A stretch of DNA of 64,000 nt from Candidatus Aenigmatarchaeota archaeon (lineage in GTDB: Archaea > Aenigmatarchaeota > Aenigmatarchaeia > GW2011-AR5 > JACRAC01): contig JACPJV010000014.1 in NCBI GenBank assembly GCA_016187395.1, forward strand, positions 891 through 64,890. Direction: 5' to 3'. How positions within the stretch are numbered: the first letter of the stretch is position 1; each line of letters begins with the position of its first letter. The position numbers and the translations under genes were made by a program. This document shows positions 3,309 to 42,113 of this stretch, one piece after another. The notes beneath the pieces are model-generated. The model searched no databases. It worked only from the letters and a program-made list of their open reading frames with translations, and was not told the origin of the DNA.

Positions 3309-6026
3309 GTGATTTCCATGGACTTCAAAGAAATCGAGAAAAAGTGGCAGTTCAGGTGGGGAGATAAATTCTACGAGCCAAAGGGCAAGGGCAGGAAATT
3401 CTTCGTCACATTTCCCTATCCTTACGTAAACGGCGCGCCTCATATAGGACATATTTATACTCTTTTTCGGGTGGATGTTTTTGCCAGGTTCAAACGAATG
3501 CGGGGCTTTGACGTGCTTTTCCCACAAAGCTTTCACGCAACAGGCGAACCACTTGTTGGGGCGATAGAAAGGCTAAGGAAAGGTGATGCTGTCCAGCTAA
3601 ACACGTTCAAGGCATCCGGCGCAACCGACGAGGATATAGAAAAATTCAAGGAAGATCCTATATACGCCGCGAAGTTCTGGAAAAGAAGATGGATGTCTGA
3701 CCTCAAGGCAGCTGCGGCGTCTATAGACTGGTCGCGAACTTTCATGACAGCTACGCCGCACTACAACAAATTCATAGAGTGGCAATATTTGACGTTGAGA
3801 AGGAAAAAACTTGTGGTAAAGGGAACTCACCCGGTTATATGGTGCCCACATGACCAGAGCCCTACCGGCGACCATGACAGGCTGGAAGGCGAGGGAGAAT
3901 ACCCGGTTGAGCATGTGCTCCTGAAATTTGAGGTAAGTTCGTTATCAGAACAGATGGATAATTTCTCTGTTTTTCTGGTTGTTTCTACGCTAAGACCTGA
4001 AACTGTCTACGGAGTCACGAACATCTGGGTTGATGAAAATACGGAATATGTAATGGCTGTTATGAGCAATGAGGTTTGGATAGTTTCTGAGAAGGCCTTC
4101 GAAAAGCTAAGAGATCAAAACAAAGACCCCAGAGAGATAGGAAGAATCAGCGGCTCTGGGCTTCTTGGAAAGAGGGCTGTTAATCCGGTCACAAACAGGG
4201 AAATTCCGATTTTACCAGGAAAGTTTATAGAAACCGACGTGGGCACCGGAATTGTTATGAGCGTACCGAGCCACGCACCATACGACTGGATGGCTGTCAA
4301 AGGGCTTTTATCAAAGCCTGAGGAGATGGAACGCTTCGGAGTGACAGAAAGAGAGCTGCAGCCGATAAAGGTTGTGAATACAGAAGGCTACGGGGAGAAC
4401 CCTGCCGCGGATTTGTGCGAAAAACTGGGTGTAAAATCGCTTGAACAAAGGGATCTTCTGGAGAAGGCAACAAAAGAATTGTATACGAAGGAGTTTTATC
4501 AAGGAACCATAATGCTGGATTATGGCAAATACGGCGGAAAGAGCGTGGAAAAAAGCAAAGACACCCTTGTCAAGGATTTTCTGAAGGCAAAGATCGCTGA
4601 CATACTCTTCGAAACCAGCAATAAAGTCGTGTGCAGATGCGGAACTCGATGCCACGTAAAGGTCCTCAAGAACCAGTGGTTCCTTAAGTATTCGGACAGG
4701 ACCTGGAAAAAGGATGCAAAAAATCACATAAAACTTATGCAAATTCTGCCAGAAGAGGCGAGGACAAACCTGCTCGCAACCATAGACTGGCTTGACGACA
4801 AGGCGTGCGCGCGCAAAAGTGGTCTGGGTACAAAGCTGCCGTGGGACAAGGAATGGATTGTTGAAACATTAAGCGACAGCACGATATACATGGCGTTCTA
4901 TACAATATACGGAATTATAGAGAGGGAAAGGATTGCAGCGGAAAACTTGAATGTGGAAGTATTTGATTATGTTTTCCTTGGCAAGAATCTGGCAAAGGCA
5001 AGGAAATCTGTGGGCATTCAAACACTCAAAAAAATGCGCTCCGAATTCCTGAGATGGTATCCTGTTGACATGAGGGTAAGCGGCAAGGACCTGATCCAGA
5101 ATCACTTTGCCTTCTTTATTCTGCATCACATCGCGCTGTTTTCAAAAAACCACTGGCCTAGAGGCATAGGAATCAACGGGCATGTAACAATAGAAGGCGA
5201 GAAGATGAGCAAAAGCAAGGGCAATGTGCTTTTGCTAAAGGATATGATTGATAATTACAGTTCTGACCTGGTTAGAATTACTGTTGTCGGCTCAGGCGAA
5301 GGTCTCGATGATGCGAACTGGTCTGTCCGGGATATAGATGCATACCGTTCCAGGATAGAATTTATCCTCGAAACAGCAAATAACCTGAAGAACCTGAAAC
5401 CGGTGAAAGAAAGAAATAGTGACAAATGGCTTCTGTCGGAATTACAGCGTATCTTAAAGGAGACGAAAGAGTGTTATGAAAAATTGCTCATAAGAACTGC
5501 CTGCAATTCTGCTGTATTCCGCTCTCACAATGCGCTAAAGTGGTATCTGCGAAGATGCGGTTCTTTTGAGAATTCAAACAAAGCTGCGCTAGAGAAATTT
5601 CTATCAGCCATCATCAGAATAATCTCGCCGCTTGCACCACATACAATGGAAGAGGCATGGCATATGCTGGGAAAAACTACGTCCGTGTCTCACGAGGAAT
5701 GGCCCGAGGAGGATGAAAACCTGTACGACATATATGCAGAGGCTTGCGAAAATTTGCTTAAAAAAATAATCCAGGATGTCGAAAATGTAAAAAGGATGAT
5801 ATCAAAGAAAACTCCTGACCCAAAGAAGGCAACTATATTTGTTGCGAGAAAACCTGCTTTTAAAGATGCCAAAGAGAAAGCAGTTCAATTATCTGTTCTT
5901 AATGAAGCAAAAGACTTTCTGTCTAAAGAGTTACGTCTTGAGGTAAAAATAATCGATGGCGACAAAAGCATAGACGTAAAGGCGGAAAAAGCTACGCCAG
6001 AGAAGCCGGGTATATTCATAGAATGA
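3309..6026 (+). CDS. leuS: leucyl-tRNA synthetase (archaeal type)
   Basis: HIGH motif (APHIGH), KMSKS motif, 905 aa; GTG at 3309 or ATG at 3318. Confidence 0.95.
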   Translation: MISMDFKEIEKKWQFRWGDKFYEPKGKGRKFFVTFPYPYVNGAPHIGHIYTLFRVDVFARFKRMRGFDVLFPQSFHATGEPLVGAIERLRKGDAVQLNTFKASGATDEDIEKFKEDPIYAAKFWKRRWMSDLKAAAASIDWSRTFMTATPHYNKFIEWQYLTLRRKKLVVKGTHPVIWCPHDQSPTGDHDRLEGEGEYPVEHVLLKFEVSSLSEQMDNFSVFLVVSTLRPETVYGVTNIWVDENTEYVMAVMSNEVWIVSEKAFEKLRDQNKDPREIGRISGSGLLGKRAVNPVTNREIPILPGKFIETDVGTGIVMSVPSHAPYDWMAVKGLLSKPEEMERFGVTERELQPIKVVNTEGYGENPAADLCEKLGVKSLEQRDLLEKATKELYTKEFYQGTIMLDYGKYGGKSVEKSKDTLVKDFLKAKIADILFETSNKVVCRCGTRCHVKVLKNQWFLKYSDRTWKKDAKNHIKLMQILPEEARTNLLATIDWLDDKACARKSGLGTKLPWDKEWIVETLSDSTIYMAFYTIYGIIERERIAAENLNVEVFDYVFLGKNLAKARKSVGIQTLKKMRSEFLRWYPVDMRVSGKDLIQNHFAFFILHHIALFSKNHWPRGIGINGHVTIEGEKMSKSKGNVLLLKDMIDNYSSDLVRITVVGSGEGLDDANWSVRDIDAYRSRIEFILETANNLKNLKPVKERNSDKWLLSELQRILKETKECYEKLLIRTACNSAVFRSHNALKWYLRRCGSFENSNKAALEKFLSAIIRIISPLAPHTMEEAWHMLGKTTSVSHEEWPEEDENLYDIYAEACENLLKKIIQDVENVKRMISKKTPDPKKATIFVARKPAFKDAKEKAVQLSVLNEAKDFLSKELRLEVKIIDGDKSIDVKAEKATPEKPGIFIE

Positions 6027-6030
6027 ATAT

Positions 6031-6256
6031 GGTGAAGCAACAAAATAAACCCGATAAGATTTTGTTGCTTCCCATCCAGTGAACCAAACTCAAGCCGGTA
6101 TTATTAATTTGGTTCACTATAAACATAGTTACTCCTACTACTATTATTTATATGTATATAGTGAAACCACAAAATAAACAGGATATCATACTTGTGGTTT
6201 CACATATAGTGAGCAAGGAAGTATTATATCCTGATTTATTCCTTGCATCACTATAA
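6031..6256 (+). repeat. four tandem hairpins of the GTGA...TCACTATA family (two 2-hairpin modules)
   Basis: Stems 6034-6046/6059-6071, 6078-6088/6108-6118, 6161-6172/6192-6203, 6206-6220/6239-6254; paralog at 10229-10319. Confidence 0.75.
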
Positions 6257-6262
6257 GAAAAA

Positions 6263-6556
6263 TTAAAACTTCTCCAGGCTTTCTGTAAGAGGCTCTTTAC
6301 ATTCCTCTGCCCGAAGCCTTCTGTACCTTGACAGGAAACCTTCAAGGAGGAATTCCATTCGCTTAAGCCTTTCCTCTATTCTATCTGAGCGCTTTTCACT
6401 TTCAAGCAGGGCACACCATAACTGTGCGATCTTCACTTCATCTGCGTTGAAGTATGCGCCTCTATGCTGCGCTACATTCTCCAGATAGGCATTAAGCCTC
6501 GCTTCATCTTCTGGCTTCAGAAAACCTTTCCAATTCTTCTCTGTCTTTGTCAACAT
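6263..6556 (-). CDS. hypothetical protein
   Basis: 97-aa ORF, helical charged sequence, no recognisable motif. Confidence 0.45.
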   Translation of the reverse strand: MLTKTEKNWKGFLKPEDEARLNAYLENVAQHRGAYFNADEVKIAQLWCALLESEKRSDRIEERLKRMEFLLEGFLSRYRRLRAEECKEPLTESLEKF

Positions 6557-6626
6557 CTCTGCACCGTACCACTACTTGACGACTAAAATCTTATATACTT
6601 ATTTGACGGGAGAAAAATACAAAGGT

Positions 6627-7277
6627 TTAAGTCTGTTTGGATTCCGGTTTCTTTTCATATCTTTCTACAAATTCTACAGATTCCAGACCAATCCATTTTA
6701 TTATGATGTCTGCTATGCGATCTTTAATCTGCTTTGGTGCTGGAGCAAATATTTTCGCTGCTTTTCCTTCTACCTCTATTTTATCTGCGTTAATGCCAAA
6801 AAACTCCAGGACTGCATTGATTTTCTCCTTTTCACCTTCTATTTTTCCGGTTATTTTTATTTTGTAATGAAGCCTTTTTCCTGCAAGGGGGTGGTTGAAA
6901 TCTACGCGCACACGGCCTCCGCTCACAGCCTGAACTCTTCCCAGGGCTTCGCCAAAGTCCACCACTGTTCCTGGTTTTGGTGTTTCTTTGAAGGATTTTA
7001 AAGGAAGGGTCTTTATCATTTCCGGCATTCTTTTGCCAAAGGCGTCTTGCGGCTCTATGACCACCTCTTTCTCCTCGTTTACATCCATCTTTTCCAGCTC
7101 ACCGTCGAGACCCGGCAGAATAAAGTTTGCACCTACTATTACAGGAACTGGGCTGTATCTGGCTTTCGGGTTGAATATTTTTTCTTTCTTGGCCAAATCT
7201 TCATTCGTCAGATCGAAAATCTCCCCTGAGTCCAGCCTTCCCACGTATTCTATTTTAACTACGTCTCCTTTCTTCAT
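6627..7277 (-). CDS. FKBP-type peptidyl-prolyl cis-trans isomerase (long archaeal type)
   Basis: MKKGDVVKIEYVGRL...DFNHPLAGK typical of archaeal FKBP/SlyD; start set at ATG 7277; the track extension to 7439 is low-complexity. Confidence 0.85.
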   Translation of the reverse strand: MKKGDVVKIEYVGRLDSGEIFDLTNEDLAKKEKIFNPKARYSPVPVIVGANFILPGLDGELEKMDVNEEKEVVIEPQDAFGKRMPEMIKTLPLKSFKETPKPGTVVDFGEALGRVQAVSGGRVRVDFNHPLAGKRLHYKIKITGKIEGEKEKINAVLEFFGINADKIEVEGKAAKIFAPAPKQIKDRIADIIIKWIGLESVEFVERYEKKPESKQT

Positions 7278-27821: not shown

Positions 27822-28961
27822 CTATCTTGTAACAAAGGCTGTTTTTGCCCTGGAAGAAAGCTTATAGACGTATGATTTTTCAAAGGGGTTTCTCTCCACG
27901 AGTCCTGCTTTCATAAGCCTGTGCAAAATATTATTTATCGCCCGCAAAGCGTGCTGCTTTGATTTGTACCTGCCTGCAAAAAGATCTGCAAGATGCGATA
28001 TGGGAGCCGGGTTAACCAATGCTTCCAATATATGACGCTGCTTTTCTGGAACAGAGCTTGCATTTATCATAGGCTGCATCGCCCCGGGTTCTTCTATGAT
28101 ACTTCTGCTTATTGCTGCTGCCCCTGATTCATGGGCTTTGCGCATTGCAGAATCACAAAGCCGCAATATTTCCCTTGGAAAGCCCGTTGACTGTTCATAT
28201 ATGTAATCAATTGCATCCTGCGTGAAAATGTTTTTACCGCCTGCATGCGCCATTCTTCTGTCTATAAGCTGGAGAGTTTCTTCTTTTGTTAGGGATAAAA
28301 CCCCTATTTTTACCGATATCCGCTTTCTCAAAGTTTCCAAGCGCTCTCCCAAATCACGCTCAAAGCGCGGCAAGGCGGCGAGAATCAAAACCATTCCATC
28401 AACGTTATCGCCTAAGACGCGCATCCACTTGAGAACTTCGTCTGATGCTTCGTGTGCCTCGTCGCATATTATCAGAAGATATTTCATTTTCCTTCTTTTC
28501 TGTTGTTCTGCAATAAATTCAGGCAGCTGGTATATACTCTTGGCTCTTTTCTTTCTGAAAAATCCTGACTCGAAATACGGATTTAATATATCTATAAAAT
28601 TATCCGGATTGAGAGGAGGCTTGGGGAGATAAATTACGTGCCTTGTGCCAGCAAGACGCTTTGACAGCCATTTAAGGACGGTGGTTTTTCCGGATCCGGT
28701 TGGGCCTAAAAGCAGAATTATTTTATTCCCTGATAAGACAGCATCTTCCAATTCTGCTGTTTGCTGCTTATAACCGACAAGGGCCTCCGGAAGAATTTCA
28801 AACGAGAACGGGTTGCGTGAAAATCCAAGCGAACTCATCCAACTCTGATAGGATCCTTTATTTTTGGCCAATACTTCAGAATTTTGGCTACCAGGAGGGT
28901 CTTCTATATCAGCATTTTTTGCCATATTGGGTAGCCCACGAGGGCGAAACCTGTCCAGCAT
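27822..28961 (-). CDS. Orc1/Cdc6-like AAA+ ATPase with C-terminal winged helix
   Basis: Walker A GPTGSGKT, Walker B LIICDEAHE, GFPREILRLCDSA lid region, C-terminal wHTH (ILHRLMKAGLVER). Confidence 0.6.
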   Translation of the reverse strand: MLDRFRPRGLPNMAKNADIEDPPGSQNSEVLAKNKGSYQSWMSSLGFSRNPFSFEILPEALVGYKQQTAELEDAVLSGNKIILLLGPTGSGKTTVLKWLSKRLAGTRHVIYLPKPPLNPDNFIDILNPYFESGFFRKKRAKSIYQLPEFIAEQQKRRKMKYLLIICDEAHEASDEVLKWMRVLGDNVDGMVLILAALPRFERDLGERLETLRKRISVKIGVLSLTKEETLQLIDRRMAHAGGKNIFTQDAIDYIYEQSTGFPREILRLCDSAMRKAHESGAAAISRSIIEEPGAMQPMINASSVPEKQRHILEALVNPAPISHLADLFAGRYKSKQHALRAINNILHRLMKAGLVERNPFEKSYVYKLSSRAKTAFVTR

Positions 28962-28990
28962 AACAACTCCTTTCAGATGCTGTTATATAT

Positions 28991-29227
28991 GTTCACGTTG
29001 ATTTAAAGATTATGCGTGAAGTTCACGTGTAGTGCGTGATGTTCACATGAAGTTCACGTGAATGGGGTGAACTTGCCGTGAAGTACGCGTGAATATCGCA
29101 AAACAGACGTTATTTTCCAGTATTTCTCCATAATTTCCATGTTATTTCTTATACTTAGTTCACGTTTAGTTCACGTCTAATAATTAAGTTCACGTGAAGT
29201 TCACGGTATTAAAAAGTGAAGTTCACT
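28991..29227. repeat. iteron field: nine direct GTTCAC hexamers in two clusters around an AT-rich spacer (candidate replication origin)
   Basis: GTTCAC at 28991, 29021, 29041, 29052, 29158, 29169, 29188, 29199, 29221; inverted GTGAAC at 29067. Four copies are embedded in GTGAAGTTCAC. Confidence 0.55.
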
Positions 29228-29337
29228 CTAATCTAATTCTTATAATGGTCTACGTGAGATGTTCTGTGAGGGATGTGTTGGAAAGATAAGACTAAATATC
29301 AGCTTTTAATAAGAGAAACGCTATATTTGATCGTTTC

Positions 29338-29646
29338 TTACTGTTTTCTCACCTTCTCTAAAAGACCTGCCAGGCGTATCACTTGCTTGACAGTATCACC
29401 TTGTCTTAGTCTGTCTAAAACATCTGGTTTAAGCCTCACAATCCTCATAAGCGGTTTTCTGTCGGGACTTCCCAGCGTACTTTCCTCTACAAGGAACATC
29501 AGGGGACCTGATAAGTAATGAGAAACCGTAGTCGGATGCAGCTTTGCATCTCTGGCAATGCTTCTAATCCATGTACCATCTGGATATCTGGCTAGTACCT
29601 GCACTATCGCCACTATTTTCTTTGGGTCGTTTTTTGGCCTTGCCAT
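29338..29646 (-). CDS. winged-helix DNA-binding protein
   Basis: 102 aa, IVQVLARYPDGTWIRSIARDAKLHPTTVSHYL HTH-like. Confidence 0.5.
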   Translation of the reverse strand: MARPKNDPKKIVAIVQVLARYPDGTWIRSIARDAKLHPTTVSHYLSGPLMFLVEESTLGSPDRKPLMRIVRLKPDVLDRLRQGDTVKQVIRLAGLLEKVRKQ

Positions 29647-29814
29647 GGTCTATGATTAGACAGCTGTGCATATAAACCTTTTTGCGGGCTTTAGGGCTTA
29701 AAAGCGCGGAATTTTGAGGGTCATGTGCTCATTATTCATTTATCCCTCACATTGTTTGCGAGGGATTTTGGAGGCGTATGTTAAGAATTAATAGCTAGCA
29801 AGCCAATTCTTGAT

Positions 29815-30351
29815 ATGCGGCTGTTCATGGCTATAGACCTGGACCCTAACATAAGAAGGGCTGTTGAGAAGATTCAGAGGCAGATAGAGGAGCCTGGGTT
29901 GAACGTGGTCAGGCCTGAAAACCTGCACCTTACCCTGAAGTTCCTGGGCGAGATGGAGGATGTCAAAGTTGAGGGCATTATCAAGCAGCTGGAAGAGGTG
30001 AAAATGCAGCCTTTTGAGGTGGAATATTCTGGCATAGGGGCATTTCCTTCATTGGACTATATCCGCGTGATCTGGATAGGCATTAATGGAGAAGGGTTGC
30101 AGGAGCTGGCTGGGAAGGTGCGCAATGCGCTTAGCGAGTACCCGGACGACCATCCGTTTTCTGCGCACCTGACGATAGCGCGGGTGAAGCACAGGCCGCA
30201 GAGGCTTGGGGATAACCTACAGAAACTTGCCGATGTAAAGATAGGGAAGCAGCTTGTAAGCGAATTCAAGCTGAAGAAATCCACGCTTACGCCGCAGGGG
30301 CCGGTTTATGAGGATGTTAAGGTTTTCAAGCTGGGCGCTGATGAAAGTTGA
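29815..30351 (+). CDS. thpR: 2H phosphoesterase (RNA 2',3'-cyclic phosphodiesterase ThpR/LigT family)
   Basis: Two HxT motifs: HLTLKF and HLTIAR. Confidence 0.85.
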   Translation: MRLFMAIDLDPNIRRAVEKIQRQIEEPGLNVVRPENLHLTLKFLGEMEDVKVEGIIKQLEEVKMQPFEVEYSGIGAFPSLDYIRVIWIGINGEGLQELAGKVRNALSEYPDDHPFSAHLTIARVKHRPQRLGDNLQKLADVKIGKQLVSEFKLKKSTLTPQGPVYEDVKVFKLGADES

Positions 30352-30446
30352 CCCTTCCGTGGGTTCTTCTTGTCTGTTTCTACTGCTGCAGTAAATTCCT
30401 CCTCGGAGGGGCAATCGGAAAGGTGCTGCGGCAAAATCGCAGAAAT

Positions 30447-30761
30447 CTACACAAGCAGCGGTTTTACCTCTTCCACCTCAAAAATAGTTTCTTTCTTAGG
30501 GCTGATGACAACTTCAAACATCTTCATCACGTTGTTGGGGACGTTTATCTCGGCAATTTCTTTCCTGGAACTTTGCTTTCTCTGAACATACTGATGCGCA
30601 AAGGAGCGACTTATTGAAGAAACCCCTTTGAAATCTATTACTATCTCCTTCACATCAAGCGCTTCGATGAAATTGAGAAAATTGTCCGCAATTATTCGCA
30701 AGGCTAAATCTGATGAAAGAGCATTTCTTATTGATACTGCAACTTTATTCGACATAGCCAT
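30447..30761 (-). CDS. STAS-like DUF4325-type protein
   Basis: IVIDFKGVSSISRSFAHQYV resembles the DUF4325 core; 104 aa. Confidence 0.45.
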   Translation of the reverse strand: MAMSNKVAVSIRNALSSDLALRIIADNFLNFIEALDVKEIVIDFKGVSSISRSFAHQYVQRKQSSRKEIAEINVPNNVMKMFEVVISPKKETIFEVEEVKPLLV

Positions 30762-31213
30762 ATACGCTCACCTTTTCAGAGGTTCATCGAGCTGTACGCA
30801 TTCATCGTCTTTCGGTATATTTTTCCGATAAATTTTTTCCTGTGGCCAGAAGCGCGCTGATAGCTTGAAAGCAGGCACTGGGCTATCAGAAGCAGTTCTC
30901 TCCGCAGAGAATTTTTTCCTGTGAATGGTTGCTTAAGCGATCTGCCCTTTACTGCCTCATGCCGCATTATATTCCATTCTTTTTCGGCAATTAGCTTTGA
31001 CATCAAAAGAAGAAGCAAGAAAACTTCTTAAATTCTATCAGAGCTAAAAATTGATAGTGTGGTGGCGTGAATTTATTTCTTTGCATTTTCAAATAACTTC
31101 AATACACCTTCACTAATCTGAAACGGCCTGGGAGCGTAGAACTTAGATTCCTGAAACACTGGGCACTTCCAGCAATGTCTCAGATTTAAGAATTCGTTCT
31201 CCATAAATTGCTA

Positions 31214-31957
31214 ATGAACATTCCAGAGATAGATATCAAGAGTAAGTTGAAAGAGATTTCCGAGATGGGTTTTATAAAGGCTCTACGAAAAAGTGACACT
31301 GGTATAGGATTCACTCTTGAAACTGAAATGGGAATAAAAGAAAACAATCTGAAGAATGAAGATTTTACTTACAAAGGAGAGAAAGTAGAATTAAAGACGC
31401 AAAGGAAAGGGACGACTTCTAACATAACGTTGTTTACAAAAGAGCCCGTGAAAGGGGAGCTGAACGACAAGAAACTCATAGACAAATATGGTTACAAGAA
31501 CGGGCATGGCAGAAGAGCGTTAAAAATAACACTCACTACCAGATACTATACACCACAAGGACTAAAATTGGAAATAGATGAAAATAGCAAGAATATATTT
31601 GTAACACACAAGACTGATGGTAAGCTCTGGTATTGGACAGTTTCTGATATAAAATTCAAGTTGGGCAACCTTCTTCTTGTATTTGCAGCTAAAAAGAGGA
31701 AAGGCGAAAGCGAATATTTCCATTACAATGAAGCATACTATTTCACGAATTTTGACGAAGAGACTTTCTTTAAGCTCATCCAGACGGCAAGAATAGTAGT
31801 CGACCTAAGAATGCATCTTAGGCCGACAGGCACAGTAAGAAACCACGGAACAGCCTTTAGGATAATAAATCTTGAGAATTTGACATCTTGCTATAAGAAA
31901 AAAGAAACAATAGTTTCAGAAAATAAGAGCTTTAGATTTTCTGAAGGACCACAATAG
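31214..31957 (+). CDS. type II restriction endonuclease, MvaI/BcnI family
   Basis: Recalled BcnI blocks align: GIGFTLETEMGIKENN, GEKVELKTQRKGTTSNITLFTKEPV, LLLVFAAKK...FHYNEAYYF, VVDLRM...NHGTAFRI. Confidence 0.7.
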   Translation: MNIPEIDIKSKLKEISEMGFIKALRKSDTGIGFTLETEMGIKENNLKNEDFTYKGEKVELKTQRKGTTSNITLFTKEPVKGELNDKKLIDKYGYKNGHGRRALKITLTTRYYTPQGLKLEIDENSKNIFVTHKTDGKLWYWTVSDIKFKLGNLLLVFAAKKRKGESEYFHYNEAYYFTNFDEETFFKLIQTARIVVDLRMHLRPTGTVRNHGTAFRIINLENLTSCYKKKETIVSENKSFRFSEGPQ

Positions 31958-33209
31958 CTTCTTGCGTCATTGTATTAGATATGTCACCTTTCTTGTTAGA
32001 CGGAGAGTTTCTCGAGGGTATTCTTTTGCTCGGTATATTTCTGAATATAGTATTAATGTGGTTCATGTCGTGGTCTTCACCAAGTTCTTGTATTATTTTG
32101 TGAGTAGGGATCTGGTAGCCCTTCACTGTTCTATTGCCTACAACCATACAGATTCTAGCGCCCTTTCTAGTAACACGGTTAAGTTCTACGAAACATTTGT
32201 CTAAATCTACATAGAAGCTTAGTACGTCGTTTGCACGTTGCACATCTTTTTGTTCGATTTTTGTAACATATTCGTTAAGTGTAGGTGTTATTACTTTCCA
32301 CAAATTATCAGCTTTCGTGCCGCCCAACAACATTTTATCTATGATATTAACAACTTTCTCATCAAAGCCTAGCCATTTCAAAGACAATCTTGAAAATTGG
32401 CCGTAAGCAACGGTTGTTCTAGAATCTCCATAAGGCGGGGAAGTGACTATTAAGTCTACGCAGTCATCGGGAACAGACGTCTTCTTTCGTGTGTCTTCCA
32501 GCAGAACAATAGGTTTCGGCGGATTATCTAAGACATTATGAAACTCCGCAATTTTAGGCATGCATTTCTCAATATGTTTTTTGAATATCGCAAGAGGTTC
32601 TGGATTATAACCTTTAAAATCGTCTTCGCTTATCCTATGCAGTTTAAAGCCTCCTTGCCTGACGTTGCTAGATTTTCTTACGGTTTCTGAAAAACAAGTT
32701 AAAAAGAATGCTTTGAATTTGTTAGGAATATTATTTATAGCGTCTCTTATTTTTGCCAAGTCTTCTATCGCTTTGGGCTTAAACCAGAAATCTATATTGA
32801 AGAATTTGGGCGGCTTCACAGGCTCAGAAGTTTCTATTCTTTGAAGTAATTTTGAATAAGTTTTGTTCAATTCGTCTATATCATATAGTGTTGTCTTGCT
32901 TTCTGCGATTAGTTTAGTTAGAGGGTTTATATCAATCCCAAAGCTTTCTTTACCGGTCAGCATAGATTCTACCAAAACAGTTCCGCTGCCACAGAATGGG
33001 TCTAAAATAACATCACCGTTTTTCAAATTTTCTTTAATTAATCTAGCTGCGATCTGGGGTATCATCATTGCCGGATAAGAATGTAAGCCGTGAGTATAAT
33101 ATTTTGTATCAGCTCCCTTAAAATCCCAAGGTGTTTCTAAATATAGATTTTGTTGTAAAGGCATCATGCTTCTTTTATTGTTGATTTTTAACATATAACC
33201 ACCTCTCAC
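31932..33209 (-). CDS. DNA methyltransferase (SPPY type; probably N4-cytosine or N6-adenine)
   Basis: Motif I DPFCGSGT, motif IV TSPPYG; 26-bp convergent overlap with the endonuclease gene. Confidence 0.85.
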   Translation of the reverse strand: MRGGYMLKINNKRSMMPLQQNLYLETPWDFKGADTKYYTHGLHSYPAMMIPQIAARLIKENLKNGDVILDPFCGSGTVLVESMLTGKESFGIDINPLTKLIAESKTTLYDIDELNKTYSKLLQRIETSEPVKPPKFFNIDFWFKPKAIEDLAKIRDAINNIPNKFKAFFLTCFSETVRKSSNVRQGGFKLHRISEDDFKGYNPEPLAIFKKHIEKCMPKIAEFHNVLDNPPKPIVLLEDTRKKTSVPDDCVDLIVTSPPYGDSRTTVAYGQFSRLSLKWLGFDEKVVNIIDKMLLGGTKADNLWKVITPTLNEYVTKIEQKDVQRANDVLSFYVDLDKCFVELNRVTRKGARICMVVGNRTVKGYQIPTHKIIQELGEDHDMNHINTIFRNIPSKRIPSRNSPSNKKGDISNTMTQEAIVVLQKI

Positions 33210-33799
33210 ACCCTAGCAATCCTCCCAGCATCGGTCAATGCGAACTTCCCGTTCTCCTTTGCCAGCAAACCCTCGGATTCCAAATCTTTTATATAGCGGT
33301 ATACCTGCGCCCTGCTTATCTTGAGCTTCTTTATCAGCTGGGTTATGTTAGCTGTTCTGTCCACCTCATTCAGCAGCTTCTTGTAATTGCCGTTTATCGT
33401 GAAGGCAAGCTTTGGCATGAACACGGCCTCATTATTCCCTCCCCAATATACTATCTTCTTTATCCTGTCAGAGCGCGCATAGCATGCGAGAAGCACGCCA
33501 AAGGCCTGAGGCTTTCTTCCCTGGGATATGTCAACGTAAATCTCCGTTCCGGCCGGTATGGAATCTATCAGCTTCATCACGCCTTCAGAAACTGCCGGGA
33601 TATCATAAACATCGACGTTTCTCTCGACTATCTTCAGCGTGTTGTTGAAGGCTTTTTTGATGAACTTTATTGAATTCAGCTGCGCGGCCTTCGCCTTATT
33701 GTCAACAAGCAGAATAAGCCTCTTCGGGTTGAACTCCTTGATAGAAAGAACCGTAGAGTCGCTCTTCTCGTATACGGTAGAAATCAGCACCCCTGACAT
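33206..33799 (-). CDS. Csa3-like regulator (CARF-like Rossmann domain + C-terminal wHTH)
   Basis: N-terminal beta-alpha pattern with VDISQGRKPQAFGVLLA; C-terminal ITQLIKKLKISRAQVYRYIKDLESEGLL; GTGA overlap with the methyltransferase gene. Confidence 0.5.
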   Translation of the reverse strand: MSGVLISTVYEKSDSTVLSIKEFNPKRLILLVDNKAKAAQLNSIKFIKKAFNNTLKIVERNVDVYDIPAVSEGVMKLIDSIPAGTEIYVDISQGRKPQAFGVLLACYARSDRIKKIVYWGGNNEAVFMPKLAFTINGNYKKLLNEVDRTANITQLIKKLKISRAQVYRYIKDLESEGLLAKENGKFALTDAGRIARV

Positions 33800-33943
33800 G
33801 ACAGAATTGTGGTTTCATGCCGTATATATAGATTTGTGTTTTGTGAGATATGTATCGGATTTGTGAGAATTATGATACTGGGTTGTTGAAGCGCTGCGGG
33901 GTTGTTTTTGAGGTCTAACGGATTTAAGCGCTCGCTTTAGAAT

Positions 33944-35011
33944 ATGCGAATGGAAGATCCTCTTAAGGTTGTGTACCTGTTTGGGGCCGGGGCTACACAG
34001 GCAGAAGTTGTTAGATTCGACCCTGATGTAGACTTAACTATGCCTGCAGTTACCGAAAGAATATTCGATAGAAAAATACCAACCGTATCCGATCTGAATG
34101 CTTTGCGTGTTTATTTCTCAGGGACTGTTTCGTCAGCTCTAAATGTCGAGCACATTATTAGCTTACTTGAATCCCTAGAAATAGAGAAATATCGAACGAT
34201 GGCGAGTGTACTAAGAAAGTTGTTCCAAGAAGACATACTAGAAAACTTGATTAAGAAAGACAATTACGTTAGTCCAGATCTGACAAAGGCGTTGTTAAAA
34301 TTTCATACCCTCGACGAAGTTAAAATACACGAAACTCTAAATGGGGTAATAAGCTTGAACTATGATAGTCTTTTGGATATAGCATTTCAATACGTATTCG
34401 GAGAAGTTAATTATGGAATCAACTGTATATCTGAAACTTATAAGACTTCGCAATCTGAAAATTCGACCCCTCTTCTACTGAAAATTCACGGCTCCTTCAA
34501 TTGGAAGCAAGGAATTCCTATCGTAATTTCTGAGGGTATGGATTTTCTTAAAACCTACTCTTCGGTTTGGATACCGCCCTCTATTAACAAAAGTATACAA
34601 AATTTCCCTTTTAACCACATTTGGGGCGAAGCCTTTGAATTACTAAACTGTGATTTACTCAGAGTAATAGGCTGTTCATTGAACCAAAATGATTGGGGGT
34701 TATTAGATTTGTTGTTCAAAACACAGTTTCTTTCTCCCAAACCTTATAAAATTGAATTGGTAGTTTCGCCCAAAAAGTGTAATGAGATAAAGGAAAAGTT
34801 CGCGTTTCTTAAGAATGTGGTTGCGATTGAAGACTTGGACATTCCTTTATTTTCTGATATGGAATTTAACGAAAAAGGCAACTACGTTGGAGAAGATTCC
34901 AATTTCTATGAAAGGTGGTTAAAAACCAAAATAAAATCCTTTGCAAAGTTTATACAGAATAAGGACGTTAAAGAGGAAATAAATAGGCTTGTTGCTGAGG
35001 AGATACTATGA
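33944..35011 (+). CDS. SIR2-like (SIR2_2 family) protein, putative NADase effector
   Basis: LFGAGAT, SLNYDSLLD (catalytic Asn), LKIHGSFNW (catalytic His), VIGCSLNQNDW. Confidence 0.8.
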   Translation: MRMEDPLKVVYLFGAGATQAEVVRFDPDVDLTMPAVTERIFDRKIPTVSDLNALRVYFSGTVSSALNVEHIISLLESLEIEKYRTMASVLRKLFQEDILENLIKKDNYVSPDLTKALLKFHTLDEVKIHETLNGVISLNYDSLLDIAFQYVFGEVNYGINCISETYKTSQSENSTPLLLKIHGSFNWKQGIPIVISEGMDFLKTYSSVWIPPSINKSIQNFPFNHIWGEAFELLNCDLLRVIGCSLNQNDWGLLDLLFKTQFLSPKPYKIELVVSPKKCNEIKEKFAFLKNVVAIEDLDIPLFSDMEFNEKGNYVGEDSNFYERWLKTKIKSFAKFIQNKDVKEEINRLVAEEIL

Positions 35012-36018
35012 AACATCGAATTGAAAAATGGAAAGTTATTGACTTATATAAAGATAGGGATAAAATTCAATATCCATACTACCAGAGATCTCCTAACATA
35101 TGGAATGAAGAAAAAAGGGCTAAATTGATTGATTCTATTGTTAATGGTATACCAATACCTCTAATCTTTCTTTATGAACAAAACGGAGGCGACTCCTATG
35201 ATTGTGTAGATGGTCAGCAAAGAATACAAAGCATTATGGAATTTTTAGACGGACATTTGACTACAGAATACGGAAATATAGATAGGATTACTGAAAGAGT
35301 AAGAGTCAAAATAGAAAACTACGAATTAAGTATAGTTATTATCGAAGATGCAGATGAGGACGACTTACGAAAACTCTTTATAAGATTACAGCTAGGAGCT
35401 CCACTCAATGCTGGCGAAAAACTTAATGCAACTACTGGAGAGATGAGAGACCTTATTTTCAAAAGGTTGAAAGAACATCCCTTTATACAAAAAGTTAACA
35501 TCCCATCGAGAAGGTTTTCTAAAGAACAGGTTCTAGCACAAATTTGTATCAACTCGTTCAGTCTTGCCTTAAAGGGAACATTTCAAAGTGCAAGATTTGA
35601 AAAACTGTTGTCATTCTTCGAACAGTATGAAAAATTAGACCGATACCATCAAGAAGTTGGTACAATAGAAAGGACGCTCAATATACTAGATAAATATTTT
35701 GGTGATGATGCTAGGAGGCTTACTAACAGAGCTTTGGTTTTGACTGCATACCTCTTTATTGAGAATTTAATAAAAAATGATCCGGAGGAAAACGTACCAA
35801 TATTTGTACAGTTTTACTTACGCTTTATTGAAAAGTTAAAAGAACAGGCTAGTTTAGGACTAGATTATGACAAAAGATATAGAAAGATAGTCGACTTCTA
35901 TACCTACGTTACACAGGCTGCGTTCGAACCTTATTCCATCAGCAGGAGAGCCAAAATTATAGAAGACTTCTTTTCGTACTTTAAGCAGACGGGACGAATA
36001 ATGGAAGATGTTGCCTAG
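35008..36018 (+). CDS. DUF262 (ParB-like/GmrS-type NTPase domain) protein without DUF1524 nuclease
   Basis: YQRSPNIW and VDGQQRIQSI motifs; ATGA overlap with the SIR2 gene; no His-Me/HNH motif in the C-terminal 200 aa. Confidence 0.8.
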   Translation: MKHRIEKWKVIDLYKDRDKIQYPYYQRSPNIWNEEKRAKLIDSIVNGIPIPLIFLYEQNGGDSYDCVDGQQRIQSIMEFLDGHLTTEYGNIDRITERVRVKIENYELSIVIIEDADEDDLRKLFIRLQLGAPLNAGEKLNATTGEMRDLIFKRLKEHPFIQKVNIPSRRFSKEQVLAQICINSFSLALKGTFQSARFEKLLSFFEQYEKLDRYHQEVGTIERTLNILDKYFGDDARRLTNRALVLTAYLFIENLIKNDPEENVPIFVQFYLRFIEKLKEQASLGLDYDKRYRKIVDFYTYVTQAAFEPYSISRRAKIIEDFFSYFKQTGRIMEDVA

Positions 36019-37250
36019 TGTCCACAGTTTTTCCAAACAACCAAACTTTCCCTTGCAGGGTCTTTATTGTATTTCACGGTTTGTTGATAGCTGTTGCCTC
36101 TGTATCTTAGAACCAAGATGCTCTCTGGTTTAAGCCCTGCAAGTTCTCCTATTTGTGACAACAGCGTGTCTGTCGGTACACCAACGCCGGCGTATCTTGC
36201 GTTGCTTATAACGAATGCGATTCTGCCGCCGCGCTTTACAATTTTCTTCAGGGCTTTTAGAGTTATGAACATGTCTTCGAAAAAGCCCTCAAGCATTTCA
36301 ATTATCTTGCTATTGTTTAATTCCTTTTTTGCCATTTTTTCTAGAATTTCCTGCAGTTCCTTCGGTTTGGTGTAACCTTCCGCTTCAAATTGTTTCTTTG
36401 CTTCTACGTGAGACCTCAGAGTCTTGTATCTGACCTGTTTAATCTCTCGGTCGTTTCTATCGAACCCTATTGCCTCCTCTAGCAAATACACGCGTGTGTA
36501 GTCATGCCTGTTGGGATAAGGTGGAGAGCTGATAACTGCATCAAAGATTTCATCTGGTTGTATGTTTCGGCTGTCTCCTACAAATGCTCGTGCATTTCCT
36601 CGAAATGTAATTTCGTTGCTTCTTATATCATCCTTTACCTCAGCCAAATACTTTTTGAATATTCTAAGCACATCTCTCTTTCTGAGATTTTCTTTTTCCA
36701 CTATTCTAAGAAACCCACCGCTTTTCTTAGAATTACTGACAGGCTCAAGTGTTTTTAGGAGGCAAAGAAGGAATATAGCTCTTACCCCTGGATCGTCTAT
36801 TCTTCTTATTTTTTCTCTGAACCGTACTAGAAAATTTAGTGTTTTTTTATCAAAGACTTTATTAATTGTGCTTATGTCAAATTTTATCTTTGTTTTAATT
36901 GCATCTATTGTTTTAACACTAAAAAATCTTTCGTATTTCTTTATAGCAGCAATACGCGGTCTAAGCAATTTCGTATTTGATACGAAGACTGGAAACCTCA
37001 TTACATCGTATCCAACTGCTTCTATGCCCGACTCCGCTGCTACCAACAGGGTGGTTCCACTACCACAGAATGGATCTAGTATTCTATCACCTTCTCTTAC
37101 ACCAAGGAGGGAAATTATTTCGTTCACAAGGCTGCGAGAATATCCGTGCTTATACAAGTACCATCTGTAGAATGGCGTTTTTTTATCAACTGCGGGGGAA
37201 ACGAATTTCGAAAGGTGTTGCCTCTCCTCAATTCTGATGGCCTGCTGCAT
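36015..37250 (-). CDS. DNA methyltransferase (SPPY type), no cognate nuclease recognisable
   Basis: Motif I DPFCGSGTT, motif IV SSPPYPNRHDY; stop codon shares the CTAG at 36015-36018 with the DUF262 stop. Confidence 0.85.
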   Translation of the reverse strand: MQQAIRIEERQHLSKFVSPAVDKKTPFYRWYLYKHGYSRSLVNEIISLLGVREGDRILDPFCGSGTTLLVAAESGIEAVGYDVMRFPVFVSNTKLLRPRIAAIKKYERFFSVKTIDAIKTKIKFDISTINKVFDKKTLNFLVRFREKIRRIDDPGVRAIFLLCLLKTLEPVSNSKKSGGFLRIVEKENLRKRDVLRIFKKYLAEVKDDIRSNEITFRGNARAFVGDSRNIQPDEIFDAVISSPPYPNRHDYTRVYLLEEAIGFDRNDREIKQVRYKTLRSHVEAKKQFEAEGYTKPKELQEILEKMAKKELNNSKIIEMLEGFFEDMFITLKALKKIVKRGGRIAFVISNARYAGVGVPTDTLLSQIGELAGLKPESILVLRYRGNSYQQTVKYNKDPARESLVVWKNCGH

Positions 37251-41453: not shown

Positions 41454-42113
41454 ATGACAGTCTATGGCATTTCTGTGATTGCTTGGGATCTGGATGGAAC
41501 ACTTTATCCCTTGGACGAAACTACTAGAAAATGTGTCAATGAAAGAATTTATCAAAAAATTCATAAAGAAAAAGGTTGGTCGTTGGAAAGGTGCATAGAA
41601 GAGTTTCACTCTAGGGCAGACAGATTGCATACAGCCACTGGCGCCTTGGTGGATCTGGGATTCAGTAGAGAAACGATGCAGAAATGTATGGAAGAATCAA
41701 ATCTACCTGATGTTTTGCATTACGATGAAAAATTGGTGGAAATGTTTCGCAAATTGGAGAGTTACAGACATATTCTGGTAACTGGGAATACAAGAAGATT
41801 ATCAGTAGAAATAATAAAGCGCTTGGGTATAGAAGGAAGATTCGAACGTATGATCACTTCAGATGATGTTAGAAATGGGAAGCCGCATCCAGAATCATAT
41901 GAAAGGTTGATAGAATGTACGAGTATCCCTGCTGCCAATCATGTTTGGGTGGATGACAGACTGGATCACGTACTGGTTGCAAAGGGTTTCGGAATTAAGA
42001 CTGTTCTAGTCGGCGGAGTGCCAACTGATAAAACAGATATCTGGGTTCCGAAAGTTTATGATGTTCCTCAGAAGTTGGATGAACTTGCATCAGCTCTTGC
42101 AGCCAACGAGTAA
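41454..42113 (+). CDS. HAD-superfamily hydrolase
   Basis: Motif I WDLDGTLY, later VTGNT and VDDR blocks. Confidence 0.75.
   Translation: MTVYGISVIAWDLDGTLYPLDETTRKCVNERIYQKIHKEKGWSLERCIEEFHSRADRLHTATGALVDLGFSRETMQKCMEESNLPDVLHYDEKLVEMFRKLESYRHILVTGNTRRLSVEIIKRLGIEGRFERMITSDDVRNGKPHPESYERLIECTSIPAANHVWVDDRLDHVLVAKGFGIKTVLVGGVPTDKTDIWVPKVYDVPQKLDELASALAANE

Follow-up and report, generated by a model that had tools for sequence, protein, structure and literature searches.

The DNA analysed in this study (the window) is a stretch of 64,000 nucleotides on contig JACPJV010000014.1 of a Candidatus Aenigmatarchaeota archaeon. It contains three adjacent genes which, taken together, are a candidate new defence system with good support. 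The first gene (33944..35011, plus strand) encodes a SIR2-family protein of 355 amino acids, predicted from the list of open reading frames (ORFs), Pfam, AlphaFold2 and Foldseek to be an effector hydrolysing nicotinamide adenine dinucleotide (NAD+). The second (35008..36018, plus strand) encodes a ParB-DUF262 protein of 336 amino acids without a nuclease domain, a putative nucleoside triphosphate (NTP)-dependent sensor according to Pfam, PADLOC and the structural model. The gene product of the third (36015..37250, minus strand; 411 amino acids) is an amino-methyltransferase, for which Pfam, PADLOC and the motifs predict an N4-cytosine DNA methyltransferase and a role as dedicated partner of the SIR2-DUF262 pair. 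As read in the sequence, the stop codon of the SIR2 gene and the start codon of the DUF262 gene overlap in an ATGA (35008..35011, plus strand), which suggests translational coupling of the two genes. The convergent DUF262 and methyltransferase genes share a CTAG (36015..36018), in which the DUF262 stop codon TAG occupies 36016-36018 and the methyltransferase stop codon is the reverse complement of 36015-36017. The three ORFs, both overlaps and several sequence motifs (the asparagine and histidine of SIR2, QR and DGQQR of DUF262, SPPY of the methyltransferase) had been part of the original prediction, which was made from the sequence alone, and were confirmed from the ORF list and the sequence.

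The SIR2 protein was matched by Pfam SIR2_2 with 27.2 bits, which is weak but above the cut-off of 24.5. It contains a Rossmann motif (GAGAT, including G14 and G16), Asn139 and His182. The AlphaFold2 model (predicted local distance difference test, pLDDT, 90.4) is most similar in Foldseek to the SIR2 protein of SIR2-HerA (8sub and 8wld; E ~1e-9), followed by DSR2, ThsA and SPARSA, with eukaryotic sirtuins at lower scores. The previous assignment to a SIR2_2-type protein with intact asparagine and histidine was thus upheld by Pfam, by the two residues and by the SIR2 folds retrieved. The sequence identity to the NADases of SIR2-HerA, DSR2, ThsA and SPARSA amounts to 12–18% only. Motifs and predicted fold point to NAD+ hydrolysis as the activity of the protein. 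No exchange of G14, G16 or N139 occurs among 252 members of the family; histidine is found at position 182 in 228 of them, tyrosine in 19 and phenylalanine in five. An exhaustive profile search of 1.84 billion proteins yielded 209 representatives (50%-identity clusters, E ≤ 1e-30), indicating a small family with sharp boundaries and a wide distribution. None of the partners or fused sensors defining other SIR2 systems (HerA, SLOG, pAgo/APAZ or the C-terminal sensor of DSR) was found, the protein consisting of the SIR2 domain only and having DUF262 and the methyltransferase as neighbours. The best score of a generic PADLOC SIR2 model among 36 family members was 4.8e-12, while PADLOC v2 (2023) contains no model specific to the family, and no NCBIfam model was found for either the SIR2 or the DUF262 protein. 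The SIR2 protein had no match in 72,556 plasmids and 50,697 phage genomes (tblastn), nor in IMG/VR.

For the DUF262 protein, Pfam reported GmrSD_N (which is DUF262) with 63 bits and nothing else at E ≤ 0.01. In the AlphaFold model (pLDDT 94.1), residues 1–130 form a ParB/Srx-type domain, and only helices are found after residue 135. The N-terminal domain contains the motifs QR...W and DGQQR, whose residues Q26, R27, W32, D68, G69, Q71 and R72 do not vary across the aligned family. Foldseek retrieved CTP- or CDP-bound (cytidine tri- or diphosphate) ParB, Noc, KorB, BrxU, SspE and sulfiredoxin. A nuclease fold was not detected, neither as a DUF1524/HNH match (Pfam, E ≤ 0.01) nor as a beta-beta-alpha-metal element in the model nor as a nuclease in Foldseek. 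Since Pfam finds GmrSD_N alone, the C-terminal domain is all-helical and Foldseek lists no nuclease, the protein is regarded as nuclease-less, in agreement with the earlier remark that a DUF1524/His-Me nuclease is missing.

The PADLOC model NsnA of the Menshen system aligns with residues 10–323 of the DUF262 protein (1e-22) and matches 38 out of 38 members of its family (best value 1.5e-31). NsnA-type proteins combine ParB-DUF262 with a helical DNA-binding domain (ParBDB), an architecture common to DndB, GmrSD and SspE, and this helical domain is homologous to the DNA-binding M domain of SspE (PMC12065111). Judged by the model, the basic helical C-terminal domain of the DUF262 protein resembles the ParBDB domain of NsnA, SspE and GmrSD; the median isoelectric point across the family is 9.2 for the C-terminal part compared to 5.4 for the N-terminal part. 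The DUF262 sensors characterised so far all recognise modifications within polymeric DNA via a modification-stimulated NTPase, the marks being modified cytosines in the case of GmrSD and BrxU and phosphorothioate in the case of SspE (PMC12065111). No hypervariable target-recognition region was found in the DUF262 alignment. The DUF262 core is matched by the PADLOC model PDLC03418 (REase_II, a type II restriction enzyme model of 372 positions) in the window protein (4.5e-17) as well as in 28 out of 38 members of the family; some 'type II nucleases' in REBASE therefore contain DUF262. Two further DUF262 systems lacking DUF1524 were compared: the model PD-T4-2_A covers the DUF262 core alone (residues 14–101), and no PADLOC match to Dazbog (DzbA/DzbB) was obtained.

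The methyltransferase of the window was assigned to Pfam N6_N4_Mtase and, with 1.9e-74, to the PADLOC model MTase_II PDLC03224. Motif I (FCGSG) is located at residue 61 and motif IV (SPPY) at residue 242, so that the enzyme is indeed of the SPPY type, as had been proposed. The SPPY motif is typical of N4-cytosine methyltransferases, with known exceptions. Across 230 prokaryotes surveyed, approximately 20% of the methylated motifs were of the N4-methylcytosine (m4C) type (PMC4752239). The family to which the enzyme belongs (termed window-like in the following) is conserved from end to end (mean column identity 58%).

The co-occurrence of the three genes in other genomes, on which the original prediction depended, was examined in two directions. 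In a forward test, an alignment of SIR2 homologues was searched against one genome per species, resulting in 80 loci, to which one locus found earlier was added (81 genome loci). The loci (designated by L numbers) stem mostly from metagenome-assembled genomes and were analysed with six-frame ORFs, phmmer and clustering of the neighbours, the ORF calls being mechanical. Among the archaeal hosts are Bathyarchaeia, Altiarchaeia, Micrarchaeota, Iainarchaeum and Methanobacteriaceae, while the bacterial hosts include Acidobacteriota, Chloroflexota, Bacteroidota, Nitrospirota, Patescibacteria, Verrucomicrobiota and Omnitrophota. The DUF262 gene is located directly downstream of the SIR2 gene in 78 of the 81 loci, in most cases with the same 4-bp overlap or a gap of less than 25 bp. 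An amino-methyltransferase gene is found within 150 bp in 49 loci (upstream and co-directional in 34, downstream and convergent, like in the window, in 13) and within 2.6 kb in 69 loci, and 4-bp overlaps between genes of the unit, including the methyltransferase gene, are frequent. The 11 loci for which the first search returned no methyltransferase comprise seven near a contig end (L004, L006, L033, L035, L039, L075 and L077), two with pseudogenised copies (L018 and L072), L001 and L080. A fourth conserved gene was not found: in the neighbour clustering of the 81 loci, only SIR2, DUF262 and methyltransferases occur in more than ten loci, followed by the XhoI family (9), the BsoBI family (4) and unrelated restriction-modification (R-M) genes.

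In the reverse test, an alignment of window-like methyltransferases was searched against metagenome contigs, and the best 80 of 420 relatives were examined. SIR2 and/or DUF262 are adjacent in 72 of these 80 loci, 51 of them in the order methyltransferase, SIR2, DUF262 on one strand, 17 convergent and four divergent. Seven further contigs are too short to be judged and one (L155) genuinely lacks the pair, corresponding to 72 of 73 informative loci. The window-like methyltransferases are thus, with hardly an exception, dedicated partners of the SIR2-DUF262 pair. Convergent arrangements with overlapping or abutting 3' ends were seen in 13 genome loci and 17 metagenome loci. With the trio present in about 70 of the 81 genome loci and in 72 of the 73 informative metagenome loci, spread over many phyla, co-localisation is well documented, and methyltransferase, SIR2 and DUF262 form a conserved unit. 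The related loci are set among genes for type I, type III and type IIG R-M systems, toxin-antitoxin systems and integrases. The patchy spread across distant bacterial and archaeal phyla points to horizontal transfer, and pseudogenised copies were found in L005, L018, L038, L043, L072 and L082.

Several individual loci deviate from the common arrangement. In L001 (8001-10045; also in L002 and L003, three independent assemblies), an overlapping pair with 45% (SIR2) and 55% (DUF262) identity to the window is set among HEPN-MNT, Fic, ParE and HNH genes. The pair of L080 is located on the most divergent branch of the SIR2-DUF262 tree, and this locus is the only one in which a DPPY methyltransferase adjoins the pair. 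SIR2 proteins with a residue other than histidine at position 182 occur in the intact trios of L124, L132, L140, L141, L144 and L145. In L155 (4971-10626), the window-like methyltransferase is followed by a 339-amino-acid protein, an AAA ATPase, a PIN-like protein and a Lon/BrxL-like protein, an order of genes suggesting that the window's methyltransferase family is also employed by a multigene system similar to BREX or MADS. L012 encodes, in addition to its SIR2-DUF262 pair, a second DUF262 protein (316 amino acids) in an operon with an SPPY methyltransferase (4921-7171, minus strand), which is divergent from the pair and represents a methyltransferase-DUF262 pair without SIR2. A closer archaeal relative (L165, 1726-7508) harbors an integrase, a gene for a 256-amino-acid protein, SIR2, DUF262, a 266-amino-acid SPPY methyltransferase and an HNH protein; this layout suggests that the module is carried by an integrative element and that an HNH nuclease is among its possible partners. 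One Dehalogenimonas sp. assembly carries two trios in the order methyltransferase, SIR2, DUF262 on different contigs (L067 and L071).

The partner methyltransferases are diverse. At 35% identity, at least six families were distinguished: the window-like enzymes (approximately 408 amino acids), enzymes of about 430 amino acids, BsoBI-linked enzymes of about 475 amino acids, enzymes with beta motif order of about 335 amino acids and two singletons. Motif I is found before as well as after motif IV. In spite of this, all immediate partners of the PF01555 type have SPPY: motif IV reads SPPY in 62 of 62 scorable partners of the genome loci and also in the archaeal relatives L165 and L166. DPPY enzymes were found by the same search, which serves as a check for a bias of the SPPY queries, but always as the second, more distant gene. 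From the motif, m4C is predicted as the product of the partner methyltransferases. In a tree of concatenated SIR2 and DUF262 sequences, the methyltransferase classes are interleaved, and the identity of SIR2 and of DUF262 is equal within and between partner classes. For DUF262, 63–74% identity was determined within the window-like class and 61–70% between this class and the loci with BsoBI-type R-M systems; between the alpha-430 and beta methyltransferase classes the identity is 69% compared to 70–73% within class. The DUF262 proteins of L062 and L052 are 75% identical, while their methyltransferases are unrelated. No region of DUF262 or SIR2 was found to co-vary with the methyltransferase class.

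A classical nuclease is encoded beside the partner methyltransferase in 15 of the 81 genome loci and in L165. These nucleases belong to the XhoI family (nine loci) and the BsoBI family (four loci), or are XcyI-like (L078), BcnI/MvaI-like (L005) or of the HNH type (L165). Sister loci contain the same methyltransferase class without a nuclease; therefore, the methyltransferase is kept while the nuclease is dispensable. Sequence comparison shows the methyltransferase partners to be exchanged, sometimes together with their own nuclease (XhoI-, BsoBI- or BcnI-type), while SIR2 and DUF262 show no additional divergence. A methyltransferase is thus required by the unit, though not any particular one, and the property common to the acceptable enzymes is m4C as predicted product. 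The proposal that SIR2-DUF262 occupies the restriction slot of the methyltransferase is sound insofar as the window's methyltransferase family is found almost exclusively beside the pair. It does not hold in its simple form: because a nuclease of its own accompanies the methyltransferase in the 15 genome loci and L165, the pair is attached to the methyltransferase rather than being a simple replacement of a nuclease. Since the partners are swapped while SPPY is common to all of them, the sensor probably reads the m4C mark and not a particular site. Of the proposed modification-dependent discrimination of self and non-self, the tie to a methyltransferase is retained, whereas site-specific reading is disfavoured by the exchange of at least six SPPY families without divergence of SIR2 and DUF262, which argues for reading of the m4C mark instead.

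These data are best accommodated by an m4C-dependent immune unit consisting of self-marking, a DUF262 reader of the missing mark and NAD+ depletion by SIR2, a reading held tentatively and with a confidence somewhat short of even. In such a unit, the methyltransferase would place m4C on the host's own DNA. The DUF262 protein would act as an NTP-driven reader of m4C on DNA, comparable to GmrSD and BrxU with modified cytosines and to SspE with phosphorothioate, and would stay reset as long as it meets the mark. DNA without the mark (missing self) would switch on the co-translated SIR2 protein, which in turn would hydrolyse NAD+ and halt the infected cell, making DNA cleavage unnecessary. We infer the identity of the DUF262 protein as m4C reader, the polarity of the response (absence of the mark activates), the NADase activity and the role in defence from sequence comparisons. 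A stricter version is considered possible, if doubtful: presence or absence of m4C would be read as a chemical mark irrespective of the sequence around it, unmarked DNA would lead to NAD+ depletion by SIR2, and the trio would be the first methylation-based self/non-self system with a metabolic rather than a nucleolytic restriction arm.

Several observations weigh against an m4C-dependent immune unit. The Foldseek support for the fold of the DUF262 model is weak (E ~1e-3), and SPPY predicts m4C without proving it, M.CbeI being an enzyme that makes m4C with DPPY. The presumed catalytic histidine of SIR2 is replaced by tyrosine or phenylalanine in approximately 10% of the family, intact trios included; either the histidine is not essential here, or these proteins form a subgroup with a different activity. 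L001 contains an intact SIR2-DUF262 pair with no methyltransferase within 8 kb, and the methyltransferase of L080 (6270-7424), missed by the first search and found by a motif search 570 bp upstream, is a D12-class enzyme with DPPY. Moreover, the reader would have to notice that a sparse mark is missing from a single DNA molecule within a cell full of marked DNA. Speculatively, a ParB-like, NTP-gated sliding clamp or timer, in which hydrolysis is triggered by the mark, could provide a route.

Two other explanations account for part of the data. In the classical R-M logic, SIR2-DUF262 would recognise the unmethylated site of its own methyltransferase and then deplete NAD+, with methylation as the block. 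A methyltransferase tightly linked to the pair, in some loci convergent and with a 3' overlap as is typical of type II R-M systems, would be expected in this case, and the full-length conservation of the window-like methyltransferases means that this family could have one specificity, matched by the sensor. The explanation is nevertheless judged improbable, as DUF262 and SIR2 proteins with 70–75% identity are paired with unrelated methyltransferases (alpha versus beta motif order, BsoBI-type, XhoI-type) and diverge no more between partner classes than within them. In addition, a hypervariable target-recognition region is missing from the DUF262 alignment, no reason is given for the SPPY-only partners, and the restriction role is already filled by the nucleases of the 15 genome loci and L165.

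Alternatively, the trio could function in a Metis-like manner, with m4C on the host DNA and activation of the pair by free N4-methyl-deoxycytidine nucleotides from a phage-degraded host genome. Metis provides a precedent, since N6-methyl-deoxyadenosine monophosphate (m6dAMP) is sensed and NAD+ depleted in this system, and methylcytosine-sensing variants with their own methylase have been predicted (bioRxiv 10.1101/2025.11.05.686725). The DUF262 domain has the nucleotide-binding ParB fold, and its nearest solved structures bind CTP or CDP. Such a mechanism would also account for the exclusivity of SPPY and explain why methyltransferases are exchanged freely, whether or not a nuclease accompanies them, and an abortive effector would be sensible once the genome is already lost. 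On the other hand, the conserved basic C-terminal domain corresponds to the DNA-binding module of SspE, GmrSD and NsnA and would be superfluous in a sensor of mononucleotides, the characterised DUF262 sensors all read polymer DNA, and the unit lacks a counterpart of MisB, which clears basal methylated nucleotides. Only a small probability is therefore assigned to this explanation.

A guard function, in which the methyltransferase or an R-M complex restrains SIR2-DUF262 until a phage anti-restriction attack releases it, is quite unlikely. An abortive effector embedded in an R-M locus is known from PrrC-EcoprrI, and the physical linkage of the pair to methyltransferases, in some loci to complete R-M systems, is compatible with guarding. 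A contact between proteins would, however, have to suit at least six unrelated methyltransferase families without a matching change in SIR2 or DUF262, and the SPPY-only partnership is left unaccounted for. It is very unlikely that the pair is an independent type IV-like or Menshen-like sensor of foreign modified DNA and that the methyltransferase is nearby only through the clustering of defence genes. The DUF262 proteins GmrSD and BrxU do sense foreign modified cytosines, about 28% of the Menshen operons also neighbour R-M or methylase genes (PMC12065111) and L001 has no methyltransferase close to its pair, but the adjacency in the reverse test (72 of 73 informative loci), the frequent 4-bp overlaps and the SPPY type go far beyond an island effect, and other methylase types in the same islands never occur as immediate neighbour. 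Finally, a role outside immunity, as a housekeeping or epigenetic module tied to m4C (e.g. a methylated-nucleotide sanitiser or an m4C-reading gene regulator), would be in line with the replaced histidine of some SIR2 proteins and with the absence of the family from the phage, plasmid and IMG/VR collections searched, but is hardly to be expected in view of the patchy distribution indicating horizontal transfer, the low G+C content of the island in the window, the R-M, toxin-antitoxin and integrase genes as neighbours, the pseudogenised copies and the nearest structural relatives of SIR2, all of which are defence NADases.

The trio is part of a low-GC island beside an R-M system, with a G+C content of 35–41% between 31 and 37 kb compared to approximately 45% elsewhere in the window, and the island is flanked by archaeal housekeeping genes (RadA, RPA, XPD helicase and AlaRS). 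The R-M system consists of an MvaI/BcnI-family nuclease (31208..31957, plus strand; ORF list, Pfam MvaI_BcnI) and a second, BcnI-type methyltransferase (31932..33209, minus strand; ORF list, Pfam). The convergent orientation of this pair with a 26-bp 3' overlap, already pointed out in the original prediction, was verified. Divergent from the SIR2 gene is the gene of a Csa3-like CARF-wHTH regulator (33206..33799, minus strand; PADLOC CARF3 1.8e-51, NCBIfam cas_HTH), which shares 4 bp with the start of the BcnI-type methyltransferase gene. The regulator may control either the R-M system or the SIR2 operon; a Csa3-like gene is also found 5 kb from the pair in L001. A CRISPR array that could account for the gene was not found in the window, and neither were transfer RNA genes. 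The AT-rich intergenic region of 144 bp between the Csa3-like and SIR2 genes (33800..33943), with the stretch TATATATA near 33824-33832, presumably holds the promoter of the SIR2-DUF262 operon.

Further upstream, an AAA_22/STAND-like ATPase is encoded (27822..28961, minus strand), for which a weak PADLOC match to mad8 (3.5e-6) was obtained. Just upstream of this gene, a tandem pair of 31-nt direct repeats (TGAAGTTCACGTG...) is located at 29017-29078, possibly an operator. A relationship of this ATPase to that of L155 was considered and dropped, as only the N-terminal stretch from LG(F/L)SRNPF to Walker A is alike (E 3e-4). In the island between the ATPase and the R-M genes, a LigT-like 2H phosphoesterase (29815-30351, plus strand) and a small DUF4325 STAS-like protein (30447-30761, minus strand) are encoded, which may be part of another defence module. 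A HAD gene at a distance of 4 kb from the trio (41454..42113) was rejected as a MisB-like cleaner, since it shares just a 62-residue match of 34% identity with the HAD protein encoded near the pair in L001.

If the trio is indeed an m4C-dependent immune unit, it would couple a methyl mark to NAD+ depletion and thereby join two branches of prokaryotic immunity. To our knowledge, foreign DNA is what the known forms of methylation-based immunity (R-M types I–III, BREX, DISARM and MADS) ultimately interfere with, and the SIR2 systems we are aware of sense proteins, small-molecule signals or guide-bound nucleic acids. N4-methylcytosine, as far as we know the least understood bacterial DNA methylation, would gain a dedicated reader protein, possibly useful for the detection of m4C. 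Since the mark and not the site would be read, phages could not escape through the loss of recognition sites, and any m4C methyltransferase could be plugged in, which would account for the swapping of partners. The system is found almost only in uncultured lineages (DPANN archaea, Bathyarchaeia, bacteria of the Candidate Phyla Radiation, Acidobacteriota, Chloroflexota and others) and was therefore missed by screens centred on E. coli and Bacillus. With three genes and approximately 3.3 kb, the unit is compact, and heterologous expression should be easy.

The modules of the trio, i.e. methyltransferase, DUF262 sensor and SIR2 effector, are known, whereas their combination and the logic deduced from the sequences appear not to have been described yet. 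PADLOC v2 (2023) does not define the trio as a system and returned generic SIR2 models and NsnA only, and a full-text literature search of incomplete coverage retrieved no paper linking SIR2, DUF262 and a methyltransferase; the view that no already named system is matched could therefore be maintained. In common with type II R-M systems, the unit has a tightly linked methyltransferase with S-adenosylmethionine-binding and catalytic motifs and convergent genes with overlapping 3' ends. It differs from them in the lack of a nuclease fold (Pfam SIR2_2 and GmrSD_N only; SIR2 and ParB folds in Foldseek), in the combination of one pair with many unrelated methyltransferases and in the ability to coexist with a true nuclease. 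The SIR2 protein shares the predicted fold, the GxG motif, the asparagine, in most members the histidine and presumably NAD+ depletion with SIR2-HerA (Nezha), DSR1/DSR2, Thoeris ThsA and SPARSA, in which HerA, SLOG, pAgo or a fused sensor takes the place of DUF262 and the methyltransferase. In Metis (MisA/MisB), host DNA methylation is likewise needed for defence and NAD+ depletion is the end point. This system was rejected as a match for the trio because the proteins are unrelated: MisA is a calcineurin-like NAD+ diphosphatase and MisB a HAD phosphatase, and neither domain is present in the trio. Furthermore, Metis senses a free mononucleotide (m6dAMP), while the sensor of the trio has a predicted DNA-binding domain.

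Among the DUF262 systems, Menshen (NsnABC) shares the ParB-DUF262 and ParBDB architecture, NsnA aligning with the DUF262 protein over its full length. It differs from the trio in that neither an NsnB ABC/OLD-type ATPase nor an NsnC inPIN-nuclease is encoded beside DUF262 in the window or in the approximately 150 related loci. The Menshen survey lists other DUF262 systems and notes solitary methylases beside Menshen, with no mention of SIR2 (PMC12065111). GmrSD and BrxU, the latter among the Foldseek matches, have the N-terminal DUF262 domain with QR...W and DGQQR in common with the sensor. They contain a DUF1524 His-Me nuclease, which is lacking here, and target foreign modification, whereas the trio is a multi-gene unit tied to a methyltransferase of the host. 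The closest match in logic is SspABCD-SspE, in which a dedicated DNA-modification module is likewise combined with a DUF262 protein that reads the host's mark via an NTPase stimulated by it, and in which a helical DNA-binding domain follows DUF262. Ssp or Dnd models were not among the PADLOC matches listed for the seven island proteins (27822..37250). The mark read by SspE is a phosphorothioate introduced by SspABCD, compared to the predicted m4C of a single methyltransferase in the trio, and where SspE carries a DUF1524 nickase, the corresponding role would be taken here by a separate SIR2 protein.

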